A DNA stretch of 24,192 nucleotides from a virus (Duplodnaviria; Caudoviricetes): IMG/VR virus record IMGVR_UViG_3300006925_000146, positions 1 through 24,192 of that record. One strand, given 5' to 3'. A program made the position numbers and the translations under genes. The notes beneath the pieces were generated by a model. The model did no database searches, was not told the DNA's origin, and saw only the letters and a list, made by a program, of their open reading frames with translations. Positions 1-11,631 of the stretch are shown here, piece by piece (position 1 is the first letter of the stretch; each line of letters begins with the position of its first letter).

Positions 1-47
1 ACTTCATCATCATATTCAATCTCTACAACCATTCTAATCTTCTTCAT
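1..47 (-). CDS. 5' part of a small hypothetical protein (MKKIRMVVEIEYDDE...), runs off the window; third ORF of the attC array
   Basis: ATG at 47 preceded by GGGAGG Shine-Dalgarno; frame is open to the window edge; lies directly after the attC-like site 67-125. Confidence 0.6.
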   Translation of the reverse strand, partial: MKKIRMVVEIEYDDE

Positions 48-66: not shown

Positions 67-125
67 ACATAACAATTATAGCCAGCAGACACGTTCGCCT
101 GCGTCCTTTGAATGCAGTGTTATGC
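67..125 (+). mobile_element. attC-like recombination site (59 bp, degenerate inner arms)
   Basis: ACATAAC (67-73) and GTTATGC (119-125) form complementary R boxes; central GCAG...CTGC stem; the L boxes pair poorly. The stop codon of the 62-aa ORF lies in the GTTA box. Confidence 0.6.
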
Positions 126-308
126 GCCAAGATTATTCAGCGCATCTGTTGTGCCTTTAAATTGCGGAATCTCTTCCGCCTCATGGTCTTTGTCGCAACA
201 ATCTTCACACCAATACTCGCCGCACATTTCCCAAAGGTAATCTCCATCGTCTGGAGTTTTATTGCAAATAGAACACTCTAAAATTCTTTGTGTAACTCTA
301 TGTCCCAT
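120..308 (-). CDS. Small Cys-rich, putative zinc-binding protein carried in an attC cassette
   Basis: CSIC...CEDCC motif; GGAG SD upstream; flanked by the perfect inverted repeat GTTATGCGCC (119-128) / GGCGCATAAC (325-334). Confidence 0.75.
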   Translation of the reverse strand: MGHRVTQRILECSICNKTPDDGDYLWEMCGEYWCEDCCDKDHEAEEIPQFKGTTDALNNLGA

Positions 309-327
309 TTTATTTCTCCGTATCGGC

Positions 328-404
328 GCATAACAACGCCATTAAAAATCGCTCATTCTTCGCTGGACTCGCTTACGCTCGCCTTTTATGGCCAAAGGTT
401 ATAC
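328..404 (+). mobile_element. attC (integron cassette) recombination site, 77 bp
   Basis: GCATAAC-AACGC-CATTAAAA (L'' with one extra base)...TTTTATG-GCCAAAG-GTTATAC. GCCATTAAAA pairs with TTTTATGGC leaving one extrahelical base. The minus strand is purine-rich and turns the C.A mismatch into G.T, as expected for an attC bottom strand. Confidence 0.75.
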
Positions 405-638
405 GGCTTCTTCTATCGCCTTTTGGTGCTCAATAACGGCACAAGTCATTTCCTTAGCTGCTGCTTTTGAAGTATCAACTATCGCATCAGCGCACAACTT
501 AAATATCTGTTCTATATGCTCCGGTGACAGCCGCAAGCTAACTTCTCCATGTTCGTTATCGAATACAATTTTTCCCGTGTATTTCCCTTTGTTTTTGCCC
601 CACCTTTCACGCTCTATTTCAAGTTTTACTAAATTCAT
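399..638 (-). CDS. Hypothetical protein (79 aa), attC-associated
   Basis: ORF with GGAGTGG SD; its TAA stop lies within the GTTATAC box of attC 328-404. Confidence 0.75.
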   Translation of the reverse strand: MNLVKLEIERERWGKNKGKYTGKIVFDNEHGEVSLRLSPEHIEQIFKLCADAIVDTSKAAAKEMTCAVIEHQKAIEEAV

Positions 639-659: not shown

Positions 660-2234
660 TTAAAATTCTGGAACAACGTCTTCAGACATTCTTCCCGTTT
701 CTTTGGAGTACATTAATTGACCTGCAACTCCTGTCTCCCCTGACCACCTATTCTTTAAAACACGGACGGTAGTTTGATTGGATGTTTCCGCATCCTGTTG
801 GTTACGTTCTAAGCCTATCACAATGTCACTTAGTTGTGCAATAGCAGCACTACCTCTAAGTTGAGATAGAGAAGTTATCACACCTTCTTCGTGTCCTTTG
901 TCACCGCTTGGTCTACGTAAATGTGAGACAACAATCAACCCTATGTTTAACTCCTCTGTAAGCGAGCGAAGGTTAGTCATCATGTTATCTATGATACGTC
1001 TTTCGTCACCACCCTCGATACCGGATACAACAATACTGATATGGTCTAGGATAACGTACTGACAGCCACACCCCCTTGCGAGGTAACGTATCTTTCCTAG
1101 TAGGTTTTCAGATTCAGTTGAACCCCAGTGATCATACATAAACACACGGCCTGTGCCAAGTGTAGCATCAAAGGCTTCTCGTAGTTCTTCCTTTGGGACA
1201 TCTTCGAGATGCACAAGCTTGTTTAAGTGTAAGGACATCAATCCCTGAGCTGTGCGTTTACTGGATTCCTCCAACGCAACGTAGCCTATGGTAGCACCTG
1301 CGTTCAGTAGATGATATGCAAACTCACGAGTGAGCTGACTCTTACCTAATCCTGATCCTGCTGTTACTGTTACAATCTCACCTAATCGACAGCCCCCTAT
1401 CTTCTCATTCAGTCCTGAGTAAGGGTAAGGGGTAGAGAAAACTTCTTTCTCCGTTGATACTTCCTCCCATAAGTCAACACCATTGATAATACCATCAGGG
1501 GCAAATTCTTTTGCCGACCAGAACGCATCAATCAACTCTGGTGTGCGTCCTGCCATGATCATATCACTTGCATCTTTTAAGGGTAGTCTTGCAATCTTAG
1601 CTTTTCTTGGTGATAGTAGTGCAGCACATTCAAGAGCTGCCTTCTGCCCTACCTCGTCATTATCAAACATAAAGACTACAGATTCAAAACCTTCAAGCCA
1701 TTCTATAGCTTGTTTAATGTCATGCTTCGCACCTGCTGCTCCTGTCTTGACAGAGACTACTGGCCATTTGTGGTCAAACGCTTGTGACATTGAGAGCGCG
1801 TCTAACTCTCCTTCAACGATGGTGACACTCTTTCCTTTGTCTCTCCAGAGCCACTGTCCGTACAGGCCTGCTTTTTTGAGGTTCCCTCGGACGCTGAAAT
1901 CTTTTCCTGCTGTTCTAATTTTCTGGGCGACTGTTTTACCGTCTTTGGTTTTATGATTTGCAATCTGCGCTGTCTGACCATTAAAAGTGCCTACTTGATA
2001 ATTCCAAAATTTCGCTGTCTTTTCTGTGAGACAACGCTTAATTAAAACTTCATGTGTACCTGTTAAAAAATCTACAGGTTTAATCTCTACCACCTTTGCC
2101 TCCTCTTGGGATTGCCCGTATGTGTTACACGCAAAACAATAGGTGTGGCCATCAGTATACAAACTATTTGCATCTGACGAACCACACTTATCGCATGGAG
2201 TGTGCATTACAAATTCACTCTCCGTTTCTAGCAT
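660..2234 (-). CDS. gp4: T7 gp4-like DNA primase-helicase
   Basis: N-terminal Zn ribbon CDKC...CFAC; TOPRIM motifs EGELD and DNDEVG; SF4 helicase Walker A GSGLGKS, ILDHIS, LRGSAAIAQLSD and KNR motifs. Confidence 0.97.
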   Translation of the reverse strand: MLETESEFVMHTPCDKCGSSDANSLYTDGHTYCFACNTYGQSQEEAKVVEIKPVDFLTGTHEVLIKRCLTEKTAKFWNYQVGTFNGQTAQIANHKTKDGKTVAQKIRTAGKDFSVRGNLKKAGLYGQWLWRDKGKSVTIVEGELDALSMSQAFDHKWPVVSVKTGAAGAKHDIKQAIEWLEGFESVVFMFDNDEVGQKAALECAALLSPRKAKIARLPLKDASDMIMAGRTPELIDAFWSAKEFAPDGIINGVDLWEEVSTEKEVFSTPYPYSGLNEKIGGCRLGEIVTVTAGSGLGKSQLTREFAYHLLNAGATIGYVALEESSKRTAQGLMSLHLNKLVHLEDVPKEELREAFDATLGTGRVFMYDHWGSTESENLLGKIRYLARGCGCQYVILDHISIVVSGIEGGDERRIIDNMMTNLRSLTEELNIGLIVVSHLRRPSGDKGHEEGVITSLSQLRGSAAIAQLSDIVIGLERNQQDAETSNQTTVRVLKNRWSGETGVAGQLMYSKETGRMSEDVVPEF

Positions 2235-2605
2235 TACTTAAGCCACTCCTCTGGGATTATTTCTTCTGCCCAAATGAAACCATGACGATCTGCCCATTCA
2301 CCACAAGTCATCTTAGTTCCATCTTTGCGTTTCTTTGCACCCTGTACTGTGCTGTTTGCTCTTTGAAAAAGAAAACGTATGTCCAAGTCAGGGTGCTGTT
2401 CCTTCATGCTTCTCATCTTACGTTGAGCATCTTGTCGGAAGTAACCTTTCACCTCAATGTACATCTCGTTGATCTTAAGATCAGGAATGTAGTTTCGTTC
2501 CACCACATAGGGTAGCTTACAAGGTTCATACTCATAAGCCACCCCACGGGCATCAAGGTTCTTCTGGACCCGTTCTTCAAGTGTACTCCTAGAAGTCAAC
2601 GGCAT
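2234..2605 (-). CDS. gp3: T7 gp3-like endonuclease I (Holliday junction resolvase)
   Basis: RSTLEE, YIPDL...IEVKG PD-(D/E)xK motif, HPDLDIRFLFQ, W-x-x-x-HGF; lies between SSB and primase. Confidence 0.95.
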   Translation of the reverse strand: MPLTSRSTLEERVQKNLDARGVAYEYEPCKLPYVVERNYIPDLKINEMYIEVKGYFRQDAQRKMRSMKEQHPDLDIRFLFQRANSTVQGAKKRKDGTKMTCGEWADRHGFIWAEEIIPEEWLK

Positions 2606-3212
2606 CGTCTAACTCCTCTGCTGATACAGAGTTGTTAGCGGCTTCGCTTGGCGGAGGAGCCACGAAACCGTCTTCCTCGTCAAAGACACTAGCGACACTA
2701 TTACCGTATTCCACTAGGTCAATTACTTGAACTGCTTTTAATCGTAAAGATACACCAGCTTTCTTCGTACTTGCCATTACATAAGGAACAGGTTCAAAAG
2801 CTACCTTCACTCGTGAACCATTGCCTATAAGAATGTCATTGGACATCGGAACTTTCTTTGAGTCTAATACAGCAGGTTGTTGCTCGTAGTGCGTACCATC
2901 ACGCCTCTGCACTTTAGCTTTTAACTTAAACTTAAACTCTACGTTACCTGTGTCATCACCTGTATCTCGGTCAAAGACTGGTTGGCATACTTCTTGAGTG
3001 GTCAGCGTGTTCTTTAAACGGGGGTCATCTTTCACTGCCTCCTTGAACTTAGCTTGAACTATACCTTCTAGTTGCTCACTCATTGCTACAGATTGCGCTA
3101 CGGGCATTTGCAGGTTGATACTATAGTCACCCAAAGGGTTAAACTTTGTATCTGGTTCAAAGACCTTCGCCCAAAGCGCTGTGCCTTCTAATACTAATAT
3201 ATTTTTAGCCAT
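2589..3212 (-). CDS. gp2.5: T7 gp2.5-like single-stranded DNA-binding protein
   Basis: EPDTKF, IGNGSRVKV and GVSLRLKAVQVIDL motifs; acidic C-terminal tail ending in Phe (DDAVDF). Confidence 0.95.
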   Translation of the reverse strand: MAKNILVLEGTALWAKVFEPDTKFNPLGDYSINLQMPVAQSVAMSEQLEGIVQAKFKEAVKDDPRLKNTLTTQEVCQPVFDRDTGDDTGNVEFKFKLKAKVQRRDGTHYEQQPAVLDSKKVPMSNDILIGNGSRVKVAFEPVPYVMASTKKAGVSLRLKAVQVIDLVEYGNSVASVFDEEDGFVAPPPSEAANNSVSAEELDDAVDF

Positions 3213-3254
3213 ACTTTATGTTTCCTTAATAGTTAATATGAACGGGGGGGGTGG

Positions 3255-3275
3255 CTATAGGGGAACCTTCGAGAT
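3255..3275 (-). promoter_or_regulatory. Phage RNAP promoter, copy 1 (ATCTCGAAGGTTCCCCTATAG)
   Basis: 21-bp exact repeat with 11599-11619; ends in CTATAG like T7 promoters; overlaps the RNAP stop codon and precedes the replication genes. Confidence 0.85.
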
Positions 3276-4933
3276 TATGCGAAAAAGTAATCACTTAACA
3301 AGACCTCCTCTATATCCAGCGTACCTCGCTTTGGTGGTGGTGGGATAACTGCTTGATCCCCTAATGAAGTAACTGCGTGTGTGTAGAGATTTAGCAGTAC
3401 GTCATGTTCTTTATACATCTCGACAAAAGCCTCTCTTAACTTCATGTTTAATAAAGGCATGTTGGGAGAATGTGTGCCGTAGCTGTCGTGAACCATTGCA
3501 AAATCCACAACTCCTTCTTTTAAGCATTTGTCTATTGTAAAAGTTAATGCCGCAGCGTCCAATGAATGAACAAAGTTAGGACTGCTTCCCGACACGCTTT
3601 TCTTCTTGTCTATTTCGTTTTCAAGTGGCTGGTTGTAATTCAATTTAACAACGGAGCCGCTTAAATGAGTCTTAATGCGTAACTTGTTCGTGTTGATGTA
3701 CGCCTGTCGCACTAATAACCCTGTAGGAGTTATCCACTCAAATGGTTTATTGTGAGCACAATACAGTTTAGCAATACTTTTAATATAATTCATTACTTCA
3801 TGTGCTGATTGTATGACTTCGTTGATTGCTTGCCAGACAAAACCTGACAAGTAACGTGCAGGTCTGAAGAAATCATCATCCCAAGGGTTATTACCCATAT
3901 ACTTATCAGACAAAGCTTCAGCTATATAAGCACTACAAGCGTGACGTGTACCACTGTAAGGAACAATCATTACAGGTCTCTTGCATATTTTCCTATCAAT
4001 ACCCATTCGTAGTAATTGCCTAGCCAACTCTGTATCTTCTTGCTCTAATAGCTCCGTTGCTCTCTTTGCTACATCAGCATAAATGTCCTGGGGTTGTTTA
4101 CTAGGTGTAAGGTTTACTGAACGCCCGCCCTCAGAGTCCCTGAGCATCGCAGAGAGGTGTTGCAAGCCATTACATGAGCCATCACTTGCACATGGTAAAC
4201 GTGTTTCATATGGCTTCCCGTTAGCTCTGGCGATGTTGTATTCTGCCCACTCTTTGCACCACGCTAAAGCTTGCCAAGGTTTGTCCGCTTCTTGCCACCA
4301 CTTACTACCTAGCGGATCATTATAAACAGCTATGGCATTGTCTGCATTCATGTACGCCCACAATTCACGATCTTCTAAACTTACTTTATCTACTCCAAAT
4401 ACATTAGCTCCGTGTATGGCTAACCATTGGGCTTCCTCGGAGGTCGTGATAGTAGCTGTATTAGCAAACTCTAGTAATGCTTTAGAGTAATCAGCATTCT
4501 GTGGGGACAAAAAAGATTCTACTGGATACTTACGCCCCCTGAAATCTAACTGCCACACGTACCACATGTTCCCTATGTCTTTGTATTCCTCTGCTATCTG
4601 GATAGTTCTCTCGACCTGAATACGTTTAGACATGCTTTTATTGTTGATGGTGTGTACCTTGTTACGGGCAGCTTTAAATGCTTTAAACTGTAACATCTCC
4701 TCTTCGTTGAGGTGTTTAGGTTCTTTACTAAAAGGGTACTTAGGTAAATCTAAGTTATCTCTTGGAGGTAAACCCACCCATTCTTGCCCACTGTCCCAAC
4801 AAGTACGCAAGACATCAACCACAAACGCATTCACTTGCCAAGGAGTGTGTTGTAGAGCGTTAACACATTGATACTCTAATGAGAGGTCTAGCTCTTCAAT
4901 CTTAGCTATGTAATCTTTAGCTGCTTTTCTCAT
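3275..4933 (-). CDS. gp1: T7-like RNA polymerase, C-terminal catalytic part (thumb, palm, fingers)
   Basis: DFRGR, motif A DGSCNGLQH, motif B RKICKRPVMIVPY, motif C HDS, C-terminal YFFA. ATG overlaps the upstream TGA (ATGA), with GAGGG 7 nt upstream. Confidence 0.93.
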   Translation of the reverse strand: MRKAAKDYIAKIEELDLSLEYQCVNALQHTPWQVNAFVVDVLRTCWDSGQEWVGLPPRDNLDLPKYPFSKEPKHLNEEEMLQFKAFKAARNKVHTINNKSMSKRIQVERTIQIAEEYKDIGNMWYVWQLDFRGRKYPVESFLSPQNADYSKALLEFANTATITTSEEAQWLAIHGANVFGVDKVSLEDRELWAYMNADNAIAVYNDPLGSKWWQEADKPWQALAWCKEWAEYNIARANGKPYETRLPCASDGSCNGLQHLSAMLRDSEGGRSVNLTPSKQPQDIYADVAKRATELLEQEDTELARQLLRMGIDRKICKRPVMIVPYSGTRHACSAYIAEALSDKYMGNNPWDDDFFRPARYLSGFVWQAINEVIQSAHEVMNYIKSIAKLYCAHNKPFEWITPTGLLVRQAYINTNKLRIKTHLSGSVVKLNYNQPLENEIDKKKSVSGSSPNFVHSLDAAALTFTIDKCLKEGVVDFAMVHDSYGTHSPNMPLLNMKLREAFVEMYKEHDVLLNLYTHAVTSLGDQAVIPPPPKRGTLDIEEVLLSDYFFA

Positions 4934-5709
4934 GTATGCACCCTCACGAAAGGTAACTTATTTATATGGTCCGAGTAGTAACCACCGCCCCAGAACCCTT
5001 CCCAGTCTTTAGGTTGCACAATACATGGGCTATATCTCGGCAACGCTACTGAATTGGTATCGTTAAAAGCTTTTATCCAAGCTGCTGTCTCTTCTGTGGG
5101 GGCGACATGCCAAACTGTTTTGTTTCTGTTAATACGTTTATCTAATTTAACTATGCCGGTGCTGCTTATAATAAGATCAATCATTTTAATTCCTACATGA
5201 ACACGTTCTTCATTAGTCCAGTTTGGTATTTCTATATCATCCAACTTCATCTTGTGATTAAGCCCGTGACGTTTATGATCAAAGCCTTTATCTGATTTCT
5301 TGTTAGCTTCTTTGATCATGTTATCCGCTACACCATCTTGAAGTTTAAGCCATTGCTCTAAGCGTTTTTGAGTTTCTATTTGTACCCCAATGTTACGGGC
5401 TACAGTCAGCAATGTCGTCTTGGATGCTATGTTATCAATTAAACTAATTAAAGACAAGTAGGCTACCTGATCAGCCTTCATATTCTGTATAAGTTTTTTG
5501 GTAATATTTCTGTTTTGTGTTTTATCTTTAACTAAAGCTCTAATAGCTTCTTCAACTGGCTGCACAATCCCCTTGATGATAGTACGTCCGTGTTTTGTTC
5601 TCGACCCTAAATCTTTTTGTAGAAGATCATCTAGTTGTTTATTAAATCTATCTATTCCTGACTGAACCATTTGATATTCTAAATCAATTTGCTCGTTGAT
5701 TGTTGCCAT
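4930..5709 (-). CDS. gp1: T7-like RNA polymerase, N-terminal (promoter-binding) domain as a separate ORF
   Basis: Ends in PCIVQPKDWEGFWGGGYY...FVRVHT, matching T7 PCVVPPKPWTGITGGGYW...LVRTH; also WTNEERVHVGIKMIDLII. Start placed at ATG 5709 (GAGGT SD) rather than 5760, which would run into an attP arm site. Confidence 0.88.
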   Translation of the reverse strand: MATINEQIDLEYQMVQSGIDRFNKQLDDLLQKDLGSRTKHGRTIIKGIVQPVEEAIRALVKDKTQNRNITKKLIQNMKADQVAYLSLISLIDNIASKTTLLTVARNIGVQIETQKRLEQWLKLQDGVADNMIKEANKKSDKGFDHKRHGLNHKMKLDDIEIPNWTNEERVHVGIKMIDLIISSTGIVKLDKRINRNKTVWHVAPTEETAAWIKAFNDTNSVALPRYSPCIVQPKDWEGFWGGGYYSDHINKLPFVRVHT

Positions 5710-5745
5710 GTCTATACCTCTATACGGTAGATAAATTGGAGTATA

Positions 5746-5958
5746 TGTGTCCTTACCCATAACTAACTACGATTACGGAGTAAGTGTACCATAGAATTTA
5801 GTACGTGTGTCTTTATATCTACAGCCAATAACATCGGATGCGTAGATAGTATGTATGGGATTAGGAAACCGATGTCGTTTTTAAAAACCCCACACTTATT
5901 AATGTTTTGATTCACTGTGTCCCCTGTTTAGGACACATTAGGACACAAAAAGGACACA
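5746..5958. mobile_element. Putative attP with arm-type integrase-binding repeats and a core near 5861-5874
   Basis: AGGACACA at 5930-5937, 5940-5947 and 5951-5958; inverted copies TGTGTCCT 5746-5753, TGTGTCCC 5916-5923 and TGTGTCTT 5806-5813. Non-coding gap directly downstream of the integrase. Minus strand CATCGGTTTCCTAA resembles a tRNA-Arg(CCT) anticodon arm. Confidence 0.7.
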
Positions 5959-5959
5959 T

Positions 5960-6940
5960 CTATTTACCCTCTAGTATGTTGATGCCATCTAACAAACCTT
6001 CAGGTGCTAGGTAAGCATACTTCATTGTTGTTTGGATGTTGCGATGGCCCATCCACTCTTTAACTTTAAATATATCCATGCCGCCCATGACTAATTTACT
6101 ACAGCAAGTACTACGGAATGTTTTCCATATTGCATCTTGCATACCTGTACGATCTCGCAACCTTTTCCAGCGCCTTCTAAACTGTCTTGGGTGTTTATCG
6201 AACGGAGTGCGTTCAACACACTCTAAGGTACGTTGTGTTGCCGGGAGCAGTAAATCGTCACCGTTCTTGCGGTCAGGTATCATCAGTCCCCATTTGTTAC
6301 CAATAGGTATGGGTGTTGGATCAAACTTCAACAACTCACTAGCTCTCATACCTGTATCAAGGCTAACAACTGCTGCATCGTGAATATAATCCTCACCCAT
6401 TTCTAAGAGAGTATCAAGTAATAGCTTCTCCTGTTCTGGTCGATACCATTTAACAGTGTGGTTGGCTTCCTTCTGTCTGTGTATCTTAGGCAACTCAGAT
6501 AATTGATTGTTATCAACTGCCATAAGTAATCCCTGACGTAAGCAAGAGAGGTGACGGTTGATTGTACCGCCCGCCCTGCCTTGCTTCTTCATCATCTGTA
6601 CATAACCTTTGATAAGTTGAGTATCTATCTTACTTACTGGTGTTTTGTGTCCGAACCACTTAGTTAAACACTTCATGGTACTTGGCACATGATCTTCGCT
6701 CTTTGTACCTTCCCATAATGTTTCGTATGCTTCGTCTAGTGACTTACCTAGCGACCAAGCCGAAGATACTCCCGTATCGGAGTTAATATGTGATGGTGGT
6801 AGCAGACCACGTTTGAGGGCGTGTCTTGCCTGTGCTTCCCATAATTCAGCATCAGCTAAATTAGGAAAAGACTTTCGAGCCTTGTGTCCATCTACTGACA
6901 CGTACGCTTGGTAAGATTTACCTCTAGGTTGTACACTCAT
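5960..6940 (-). CDS. int: Tyrosine integrase
   Basis: N-terminal arm-binding-like domain; TINRHLSCL; TGMRASELL (catalytic R); KTFR in the HxxR position; MGHRNIQTTMKY (H and catalytic Y). Confidence 0.93.
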   Translation of the reverse strand: MSVQPRGKSYQAYVSVDGHKARKSFPNLADAELWEAQARHALKRGLLPPSHINSDTGVSSAWSLGKSLDEAYETLWEGTKSEDHVPSTMKCLTKWFGHKTPVSKIDTQLIKGYVQMMKKQGRAGGTINRHLSCLRQGLLMAVDNNQLSELPKIHRQKEANHTVKWYRPEQEKLLLDTLLEMGEDYIHDAAVVSLDTGMRASELLKFDPTPIPIGNKWGLMIPDRKNGDDLLLPATQRTLECVERTPFDKHPRQFRRRWKRLRDRTGMQDAIWKTFRSTCCSKLVMGGMDIFKVKEWMGHRNIQTTMKYAYLAPEGLLDGINILEGK

Positions 6941-11441: not shown

Positions 11442-11502
11442 ATATAGGCTCCGGTAGGTAGTTATCTATAGTCATCCCAAAGACTCCTAATGAATTTCAT
11501 CA

Positions 11503-11572
11503 ATACTTAAAGTATACTTAAAGATATTCTTTAAGATACCTTAAGTATACTTAAGTATATACTATAGTATAT
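11503..11572. repeat. AT-rich palindromic CTT(A/T)AAG repeat array (origin or packaging region)
   Basis: About six CTTAAG/CTTAAAG/CTTTAAG-type units; perfect 16-bp palindromes CTTAAGTATACTTAAG (11540-11555) and ATATACTATAGTATAT (11557-11572). Confidence 0.75.
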
Positions 11573-11598
11573 GTGAACGGGGGGTGGGGGGGTCTTCC

Positions 11599-11619
11599 CT
11601 ATAGGGGAACCTTCGAGAT
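11599..11619 (-). promoter_or_regulatory. Phage RNAP promoter, copy 2 (phiOR-like)
   Basis: Identical to 3255-3275; predicted start GGGAAGA; located after the terminase near the genome end. Confidence 0.85.
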
Positions 11620-11631
11620 AACTCATGTATA

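Follow-up and report, generated by a model that had tools for sequence, protein, structure and literature searches.

Small genes and attC-like sites beside a phage helicase gene

The DNA analyzed here (the window, 24,192 nucleotides) belongs to an uncultured marine T7-like phage, a podovirus whose genome is represented by this one 24-kb contig. Every long open reading frame (ORF) of the window lies on the minus strand, in a T7-type gene order that comprises internal virion proteins, tail fibre, holin, terminase, small early genes, and a tyrosine integrase, followed by a two-ORF RNA polymerase and then by a gp2.5-type ssDNA-binding protein, endonuclease I, and the primase/helicase. The closest cultured relatives of the helicase are found in Roseobacter and Ralstonia podoviruses, at 55–57% identity. 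An array of small cassette genes forms the left edge of the window, 3′ of the helicase gene; in L002, an identical IMG/VR contig, the order reads helicase, P0002, P0001, a 62-aa ORF, and DNA polymerase. The features to which we refer below all lie on the minus strand.

1..47, minus strand: start of the third cassette gene (62 aa in L002, where a half-site and then the DNA polymerase gene follow)
67..125, minus strand: attC-like site W2, between P0001 and the next cassette gene; GCATAAC, 45-nt body, GTTATGT; 25.2 bits, E 0.0025 with covariance model R2 (described below)
120..308, minus strand: putative cassette gene P0001, 62 aa, Cys-rich; TAA stop at 122-120 in GTTAT 119-123 (the minus-strand ATAAC box); GGAG ribosome-binding site upstream
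120..398, minus strand: one cassette on the reversed-polarity reading, made up of C, attC body, GTTATGCGCC, ribosome-binding site, P0001, and TAA
324..334, minus strand: start box of the P0001 cassette (333 down to 324), GTTATGCGCC; a contiguous inverse complement of the end box at 10/10 bases
328..404, minus strand: attC-like site W1, the site named in the original prediction; GTATAAC, 63-nt body, GTTATGC; 17.2 bits, E 0.17 with R2
399..638, minus strand: gene P0002 (ORF A, 79 aa); TAA stop at 401-399 in GTTAT 398-402 (ATAAC box)
660..2234, minus strand: primase/helicase of the T7 type, which flanks the array upstream; Pfam domains DnaB_C, Toprim, and T7 helicase-primase N-terminal domain; phrog_239, E 3.5e-181
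5960..6940, minus strand: phage tyrosine integrase, not IntI; 23 bits on TIGR02249 against a cut-off of 265, where the control IntIA scores 494 bits

The cassette genes are real and are encoded on the minus strand. All three cassette genes of the window phage are preceded by GGAG-type ribosome-binding sites, and the plus-strand ORFs that overlap them lack such a site. The original prediction had stated that the minus-strand ORFs place their TAA stops inside GTTA, and this is the case at both 122-120 and 401-399. P0001 has no match in Pfam, PHROG, or NCBIfam; its relatives, at 73% identity, are found in other, unrelated phage contigs, where they are co-oriented with their neighbours and are not accompanied by attC boxes. 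P0002 has seven full-length homologues at 56–99% identity. In the window, its own start box has been lost where it joins the helicase gene; elsewhere (contigs of runs X2 and X4), P0002 is preceded by GTTACAC and flanked by other bodies, with loose ends at 650 and 398.

Comparison with 78 further loci that surround related helicase genes identifies the helicase-polymerase junction as a hot spot. The gap at the junction measures 20–30 nt in 42 of the 71 loci that reach the polymerase, and the remaining loci carry one or two inserted genes there (for a 48–56-aa protein, a 79-aa protein, a GroES-like protein, or a cytosine methyltransferase). TAAC/GTTAT sites are absent from all of these. When the initial 3 kb of the window were compared with phage records by megablast, no matches were returned, and a generic repeat finder run on the window missed the attC-like sites. 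The sole Rfam match, miRNA-like and located at AT-rich palindromes near 11500, was judged to be chance.

On the plus strand, the W1 region reads GCATAAC at 327-333 and GTTATAC at 398-404. The extra base that had been noticed on the plus-strand arm following TAAC is indeed present: the 5′ arm GCCATTAAAA (337-346) is one base longer than the 3′ arm TTTTATGGC (384-392). The minus-strand R-box stem of W1 is paired at 7/7 positions, one of them a T.G wobble whose plus-strand counterpart is a C.A mismatch, and the fold consists of a 5–7-bp R stem, a 5x3 internal loop, and an inner stem (GCCAT/ATGGC) with two unpaired bases on the 3′ arm. The W2 body has an identical copy in contig L001. Using the models built here, W1 and W2 together qualify as a CALIN (a cluster of attC sites without an integrase), being 203 nt apart on the minus strand, with a further half-site past the window edge.

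Compared with shuffled sequences, neither site is unusually stable as DNA: the z scores of W1 and W2 are +0.93 and −0.67 on the minus strand and +1.62 and −0.38 on the plus strand, none marking a stability greater than that of the shuffles, and neither strand of W1 or W2 folds better than shuffled sequence as RNA. The bare pattern TAAC..GTTAT, moreover, occurs 18 times in the window against 10.5 expected (10.0 by a second estimate). Because W1 and W2 by themselves are thus near chance in both pattern frequency and fold stability, the case rests on the family of sites to which they belong.

A site family and its cassette boxes

The family consists of 16 distinct sites extracted from four related arrays, which are confined to a few contigs: the window and L002; L001, L093, and L097; L098, a metagenome contig of 3,971 bp in which at least eight small genes follow one another; and L095 and L096, the two ends of one 44-kb contig whose array lies upstream of its primase gene. 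Exact-word scans of IMG/VR with a 20-mer and a 27-mer returned the same few contigs only, and a 19-mer scan of metagenomes returned 12 loci, of which L089, L091, L092, and L099 were set aside as chance matches in unrelated surrounding DNA. The 19-mer was matched four times in 185,579 species genomes, about the chance expectation; none of the four was confirmed by covariance model R1 (described below), and no host integron was found among them.

In an alignment of the 16 sites, T4, A5, C7, and the motif TTG.TAT are invariant, and A6 and T72 are conserved at 90% or more. The family boxes read RYATAAC and GTTATRN and thus have the core boxes of attC, for which the available text of Nivina et al. 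(2016; PMC5027507) gives 5′ RYYYAAC (R′) and 3′ GTTRRRY on the bottom strand, with AAC/GTT conserved. The fifth box base is T in the family, as in the validated PH101 and TJE1_attC2 phage sites introduced below, whereas classical attC has a purine there.

These boxes frame the small genes in a regular manner. Each gene has GTTATnnn upstream of its ribosome-binding site and nnnATAAC at or just past its stop, with the TAA of the box (once TAG) serving as the stop codon in 13 of 17 genes counted by eye. The variable box bases fall into a few classes (GCGCC, ATTT, GTGT, and AAnn) and are matched across the genes: the two boxes that flank a gene are inverse complements over 7–10 contiguous bases in 13 of the 16 cassettes and at 9 of 10 bases in one more. 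For P0001, the start box pairs in this way with the end box GGCGCATAAC at 128 down to 119. The boxes that flank a body, by comparison, match over at least seven bases in 1 of 16 cases, with 9 of 10 bases in one more. Two of the 16 cassettes, ORF3 of the window phage and the L001 allele of P0001 (both read by eye), have unmatched ends. A rough hand estimate, which assumes about four tail classes and a chance of about 0.24 per cassette, places the odds of matching 14 of 16 at about 1e-7. Box-to-box cassette length is 202–228 bp in 12 of 14 cases, the other two measuring 250 and 356 bp.

The start of a classical integron cassette (the bases after G|TT) complements the cassette's own inverse core, whereas the box across the neighbouring attC is not its partner; whatever lies past the crossover is part of the next cassette. 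Most cassettes of the window family likewise open with bases that complement their own inverse core.

Differences between closely related arrays reveal what has been gained, lost, or exchanged. The 44-kb contig has overlapping ends, which show 100% identity over the 127 and 126 nt that flank a 541-nt stretch found at one end only. This stretch contains exactly two cassettes, and its junction shares the 6 nt CATAAC; the contig therefore represents two haplotypes that differ by exactly two cassettes. On the reversed-polarity reading, the indel would be a gain or loss of whole cassettes at ATAA|C; the junction that belongs to the canonical reading, at G|TTAT, is not seen in it. The same difference could be a deletion between the 6-nt repeats, though 10-nt repeats adjoin. 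The matched cassette ends and this indel at the CATAAC box lend support to the reversed cassette class that the original prediction had proposed.

Genes and bodies also vary with respect to each other. P0001 is present in two genome regions, between helicase and polymerase in the window and upstream of excisionase (xis) and integrase (int) genes in L098; the two copies share 92.7% identity strictly from box to box, and the bodies differ on both sides. Conversely, the bodies L98_b and L95_1 are 83% identical though they are next to unrelated genes. Gene and attC body are thus not strictly linked and assort independently, and when the linkage of a body to its upstream or downstream gene is taken as a test of polarity, both kinds of linkage are broken for P0001.

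Apart from a 722-nt stretch that takes the place of the W1 body, L093 shares 99.5% identity with the window. We considered this indel as a candidate site-specific insertion and rejected it, since it ends on the right within P0001 and is thus more in keeping with ordinary homologous exchange. The contigs of one public run include both window-type and L001-type arrays. The assembled contigs of public runs contain no circular or excised cassette forms, and an apparent excision product joining 123 to 397 proved to be an L001-type haplotype that shares a 21-mer.

Strand polarity of the sites

Two published cases offer a reference for strand assignment. Rows of attC sites without IntI have been reported in the virulent phages PH101 (Pseudoalteromonas phage, NC_029094) and TJE1 (Tetrasphaera phage, NC_019930) by Qi et al. 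(2023; PMC9892861). In the available text of that paper, IntI1 recombined five of six tested phage sites and acted better on the bottom strand than on the top, and Table S3 lists bottom-strand sequences for attCaadA7 and for the TJE1 and PH101 sites. The phage type in that table is RYATAAC ... TTGTTATnn, with the extra base or bases on the 3′ arm; these bottom-strand boxes are the boxes that the window family carries on its coding strand. A body motif is shared as well, GCGAACGTAGTGAG in PH101_attC2 and GTGAACGTAGTGAAC in the window family.

We compared the sites in both directions with covariance models. R1 was built from the 16 family sites, all in sense orientation; the only structure it included was the 7-bp R stem, and it was searched against both strands of TJE1, PH101, and the window (205 kb), the two window training copies being left out. 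Fourteen non-training matches were obtained at E ≤ 10, and five of these are published sites: four in PH101 (ranks 1, 4, 5, and 13 of 14), of which two carry Table S3 primer sequences and two are further copies found by motif, and TJE1_attC2 (rank 2). The match at 1462-1519 of L107 may be a third TJE1 site and is a probable one; TJE1_attC1 was not recovered by R1. All of these PH101 and TJE1 matches lie on the strand that Table S3 of Qi et al. gives as the bottom, with marginal E values of 0.05–4.5. A true integron behaves similarly. R1 gives six matches on the integron of a Vibrio anguillarum prophage (L111), which encodes an IntIA scoring 494 bits on the integron-integrase model; 6/6 fall inside the cassette array, and five of the six are opposite to the strand of the cassette genes.

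The reciprocal model, R2, was trained solely on 11 known attC bottom strands (five from Vibrio, four from PH101, and two from TJE1). It gives 13 matches in 48.5 kb of arrays, all 13 on the coding strand and 12 of them family sites; the thirteenth overlaps a gene start in L095. Two places in the 24-kb window are matched, exactly W1 and W2, both on the minus strand. The controls are clean: at E ≤ 1, R2 matches nothing in the 78 related phage loci (547 kb), and R1 matches nothing in 48.7 kb of unrelated DNA that shares the 19-mer with the sites. The model E values are modest, and the R2 comparison is partly circular in that its training sites and their limits were chosen with R1, the status and strand of those sites resting on the paper and the integron context. 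A model of 11 known bottom strands thus recognizes the family, and its matches to the arrays, all on the coding strand, run against the canonical polarity, in which the gene lies on the attC top strand.

The folds give a partial view of the same question. An attC hairpin is characterized by an unpaired central spacer, extrahelical bases on the L′′ arm (3′ on the bottom strand), and a terminal structure that varies from site to site. The minimum-energy DNA fold contains the R stem in 10 of the 16 sites; folding with hard constraints did not enforce this stem in 6/16. Typical copies (L098 1633-1680, 3237-3289, and 2418-2484) have an R stem of 5–7 bp, an internal loop of 4–5 nt on each side, and an inner stem. 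The first bulge past the internal loop is readable in six of the 16 sites: five have a bulge of 1–2 nt on the coding strand's 3′ arm, and one has a bulge on the 5′ arm. The known bottom strands Va_1, Va_2, Va_3, TJ_2, and TJ_3 have their bulge on the 3′ arm likewise (Va_3, TJ_2, and TJ_3 as read from printed structures).

The original prediction had proposed folding both strands as a check, and the outcome is divided: the coding strand is steadier than the antisense in 11 of 16 sites, with a mean gain below 1 kcal/mol, but the mean fold z of the family, about −1.5, is alike on the two strands (−1.54 sense, −1.40 antisense), and W1 and W2 fold no better than shuffled sequence. Two further marks on which the prediction had relied did not hold as indicators of the strand. 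The W1 body is in fact purine-rich on the minus strand (59%), but this equals the general coding-strand bias and says little given a purine content of 55% over the window's entire coding strand; across the family, the bodies have 55.6% purine compared with 55.2% for the whole coding strand, and we rejected purine richness on these grounds. The minus-strand gain in G.T pairs is real for the R stem of W1, with its one T.G wobble, but is inconsistent across the family; since such wobbles are set by which cassettes happen to adjoin, we rejected them as a strand mark as well.

The strand assignment itself nevertheless holds at the level of sequence: the plus strand is the attC top strand, and the genes lie on the attC bottom strand. 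We place the genes on the bottom strand because the covariance models agree in both directions, because the bulge falls on the expected side in five of six readable sites, and because the family resembles Vibrio-type and PH101 bottom strands. What had been predicted from W1 extends in this way to 16 sites.

Recombinase, rival explanations, and relation to known systems

An integron integrase is not encoded in the window (TIGR02249, cut-off 265) or, as far as searched, in two related viral records, and the integrase of L098 has no IntI match. The arrays do not constitute a complete integron, in which IntI lies next to the array, and the sequence past the last cassette varies between arrays. We consider that the recombining enzyme is probably a host-encoded integron integrase supplied in trans, by analogy with bacterial CALINs, for which the available text of PMC4889954 describes IntI acting in trans. 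The explanation we favour, and regard as reasonably probable, is that W1 and W2 are integron-type attC sites bounding small cassettes, that the strand matching known bottom strands is the coding strand, and that recombination takes place at AA|C, as predicted, probably through a host IntI in trans. The phage likely keeps a phage-side pool of swappable gene cassettes.

Several other explanations would account for parts of these data. The sites could be RNA-level signals, such as 3′ stabilizing hairpins, RNase III-type sites, or weak terminators, with shuffling by homologous or microhomology recombination at the boxes in the manner of PeSL motifs and without IntI. The sense RNA forms a closed hairpin in 12 of the 16 sites, with a mean z of about −1.6, and several sites consist of a GC stem followed by a T-rich tail, some of those in L098 and L095 being terminator-like; the sites also lie exactly between a stop codon and the following ribosome-binding site. 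Break points occur both at the boxes and within genes, IntI was not found, and PeSL motifs offer a precedent in T4-type phages (PMC2839356 and PMC4122927, in the text available). This explanation leaves unaccounted for, however, the complementarity of the boxes that flank a gene (13–14 of 16), which is missing across the hairpins, and the cross-recognition, in one orientation, between the models of true attC sites and of the family. A simple scan calls neither W1 nor W2 a terminator, promoter-like sites are at the chance level (5 seen, 5.0 expected), and the two-cassette indel used the shortest repeat, of 6 nt, despite the adjoining 10-nt repeats. We therefore judge an explanation by RNA signals without IntI unlikely; a role in RNA and a role as attC are compatible and do not exclude each other.

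A phage tyrosine recombinase, either the integrase at 5960-6940 or the L098 xis/int pair, might instead act on attC-shaped substrates in an integron-like system of its own. In L098, an excisionase-like gene and then a tyrosine integrase gene come after the array on the same strand; seen from the attC top strand, they have the position and direction of intI in an integron. The window phage encodes a tyrosine integrase too. The two integrases, however, are just 21% identical (E 0.023), both are of the ordinary phage type (phrog_1, with best NCBIfam scores far under all cut-offs), and that of the window lies 5.3 kb from the array on the opposite side. The sites, moreover, resemble the substrates of true IntI enzymes, and we find a dedicated phage enzyme quite improbable. 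More improbable still, to the point of being nearly negligible, is the view that W1 and W2 are no more than imperfect inverted repeats whose TAAC and GTTA arose by chance. Such a view would be in keeping with the high frequency of the bare pattern in the window and with the insignificant fold z of W1 and W2, but it must contend with 16 related sites at gene boundaries in four arrays. These sites have a nearly constant TAAC and TTG.TAT, their cassettes have matched ends, and a model of known attC sites recognizes them while its negative controls stay clean.

If the family is made up of attC sites, the mobile unit would consist of C, the attC body, GTTATnnn, a ribosome-binding site, the gene, and nnnATAA. 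The attC would then serve the gene as a 5′ leader, and the cassette would end with the TAA of that gene. For the cassette at 120..398, crossover would be predicted at 399|398 and 120|119, as these points follow from the rule that the bottom strand is cut at AA|C (PMC5027507, in the available text, which also describes extrahelical bases near L′′) and from the CATAAC junction of the indel. Expression would depend on read-through of phage transcription, each gene having its own ribosome-binding site. As the bottom strand is the coding strand on this reading, it would also be the non-template strand. Replication of T7 runs in the direction of transcription. If this applies here, the coding strand would in addition be the lagging-strand template, and the recombining strand would thereby often be single-stranded; recombination might then be tied to the direction of transcription or replication, as the original prediction had proposed. 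According to the available text of Loot et al. (2017; PMC5371416), placement on the lagging-strand template increases both the folding of attC and the excision of cassettes, and is avoided by large chromosomal arrays.

The orientation would have a further consequence. If captured by a bacterial integron, reversed cassettes would be antisense to its promoter Pc, and phages would on that account keep a pool of their own. We raise, as a tentative and less probable extension, the possibility of a mirror-image integron economy in which the gene lies on the attC bottom strand, the attC is its 5′ leader, and its own stop is the crossover. Host integrases would shuffle such cassettes between co-infecting phages, aided by the non-template and lagging-strand position, and because the captured cassettes would be silent in bacterial integrons, the phage and bacterial cassette pools would stay apart despite sharing one enzyme.

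The arrays share many features with classical integron sites and differ from them in layout. Classical attC sites (attCaadA7 and the Vibrio type, as in prophage MK672802) have the same R′′/R′ boxes with AAC/GTT, and those family copies that fold cleanly also resemble them in the internal loop and, in five of six, in the bulge that follows on the bottom-strand 3′ arm. The family 5′ arm CATAAC-ACTGCATTCAAAGG resembles the Vibrio arm CATAAC-GCTGCGTTAAGGGG, and three family sites have GCGAAGC-type loops as in attCaadA7, within a motif set picked post hoc. Unlike those of classical attC, the hairpins of many family copies are weak. The classical cassette gene lies on the top strand downstream of Pc (PMC5027507, in the available text), whereas the genes of the window family lie on the predicted bottom strand, each with its own ribosome-binding site downstream of the attC; unlike classical integrons, the window arrays have no IntI and no apparent attI or Pc.

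Comparison with the published phage clusters is mixed. In PH101, gp132-135 are on the bottom-strand side, and attC sites lie about 55 nt upstream of gp133 and gp135, a layout as in the window; long unannotated gaps perhaps hold top-strand ORFs, and the layout may be mixed. PH101 thus appears to share the reversed layout in part. The TJE1 genes, unlike those of the window, are on the top strand, opposite to the R1 matches, which is the canonical layout. The window phage also differs from both in being a T7-like podovirus with its array between the helicase and polymerase genes and in its tiny cassettes. The PeSL motifs of T4-type phages (PMC2839356 and PMC4122927, in their available text) are also short intergenic stem-loops that flank small variable genes, mostly without assigned function, in hyperplastic regions of lytic phages, and indels between close relatives end at these motifs, as in the window family. 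Unlike PeSL motifs, the window family lacks an early-promoter consensus, its boxes are attC cores, and its variable bases pair across genes. Clusters of attC in phages have therefore already been published. A word search of the main text of Qi et al. (PMC9892861, text without figures) returned no passage on gene strand versus attC strand, and the integron literature searched, including the available text of PMC5027507, PMC5371416, and PMC4889954, contains no statement on reversed gene/attC polarity that we found. The reversed layout is thus one that we did not find in the literature searched.

The layout bears on how strand choice by the integrase is understood and on how small phage genes may spread. 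In bacteria, integron integrases recombine the bottom strand of attC, and in integron theory this choice serves to orient promoterless genes behind Pc. Arrays in which every gene lies on the predicted recombining strand would break this link between strand choice and Pc. If the sites are active, the attC/IntI machinery would be in use beyond the integron platform, and lytic-type phages would trade very small accessory genes with it, which would help to explain mechanistically how the hyperplastic regions of marine podoviruses vary. Activity would also provide natural attC sites with which the effect of single-strandedness on attC folding could be tested in a replicon with known directions of transcription and replication, and it would suggest that orientation acts as a barrier separating the cassette pools of phages and bacteria.

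Gene order and strand in other cassette-bearing loci

In a 3,971-bp metagenome contig (L098; reverse complement, about 2011-3380), an eight-cassette array is followed by two small ORFs, a gene for an excisionase-like HTH protein, and a tyrosine integrase gene, all on the same strand. When viewed from the attC top strand, this layout looks like that of an integron, in which intI is followed by attI and then the cassettes. In phage PH101 (NC_029094, record 75,400-78,900), which carries published attC sites (Qi et al. 2023, PMC9892861), the annotated genes gp132-135 lie on the same strand as all four attC bottom strands. Unannotated gaps of 250-270 nt follow both gp133 and gp135, and these gaps contain a repeated segment together with possible plus-strand ORFs.

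The top-scoring match of our covariance model of known attC bottom strands falls at 1216-1315 (minus strand) of L095, one end of a 44-kb contig with a cassette array (29.3 bits, E 0.00028). The match overlaps a gene for a 100-aa protein, covering its start codon and its first 85 nt. It may be a false positive, or else an attC site within which a gene begins.

The RNA polymerase gene and intergenic elements of the window

The T7-type RNA polymerase of the window (3275-5760, minus strand) is encoded by two ORFs with a 4-nt overlap. The gene may be split, or a frameshift or a mistake in the assembly could account for the two ORFs. Two intergenic regions share a motif composed, in order, of TCTCGAAGGTTCCCCTATAG, a C-run, and GTTCA(T/C)AT. 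Candidate functions for this motif are phage promoter, terminator, and end-related signal.

RNA polymerase ORFs and shared-motif sites (all minus strand)
276-aa ORF: N-terminal domain of the RNA polymerase
552-aa ORF: catalytic part of the RNA polymerase
3213-3274: shared motif, upstream of the ssDNA-binding protein gene
11442-11631: shared motif, near the terminase end of the genome

Positions 11503-11571, which lie between the early genes and the terminase region, hold AT-rich tandem and palindromic repeats, with a 33-nt unit and TATACTTAAG palindromes. These repeats are a candidate marker of either a genome end or an origin. The sole Rfam match in the window falls on these repeats and was rejected as spurious.

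The helicase-polymerase junction and possible entry of the array

Across 78 loci around related phage helicase genes (L003-L080), the helicase-polymerase junction is an insertion hot spot, consisting of either a 20-30-nt gap or one to two inserted genes. The leader TCA(A/C)TCCAGCGAGAKGAT is frequently present twice at this junction.

Inserted genes at the junction
48-56-aa protein
79-aa MKTKIHVNQH protein
GroES-like protein
Cytosine methyltransferase

In the window phage, a short direct repeat lies on both sides of the whole three-gene array, as seen in L002, an identical contig that extends past the left edge of the window.

Direct-repeat copies in L002
3783-3791: GAATTTTAA, at the helicase stop
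About 4624-4634: GAATTTAA, ahead of the polymerase leader

This bracketing suggests that the three-gene block was acquired by recombination with another helicase end.
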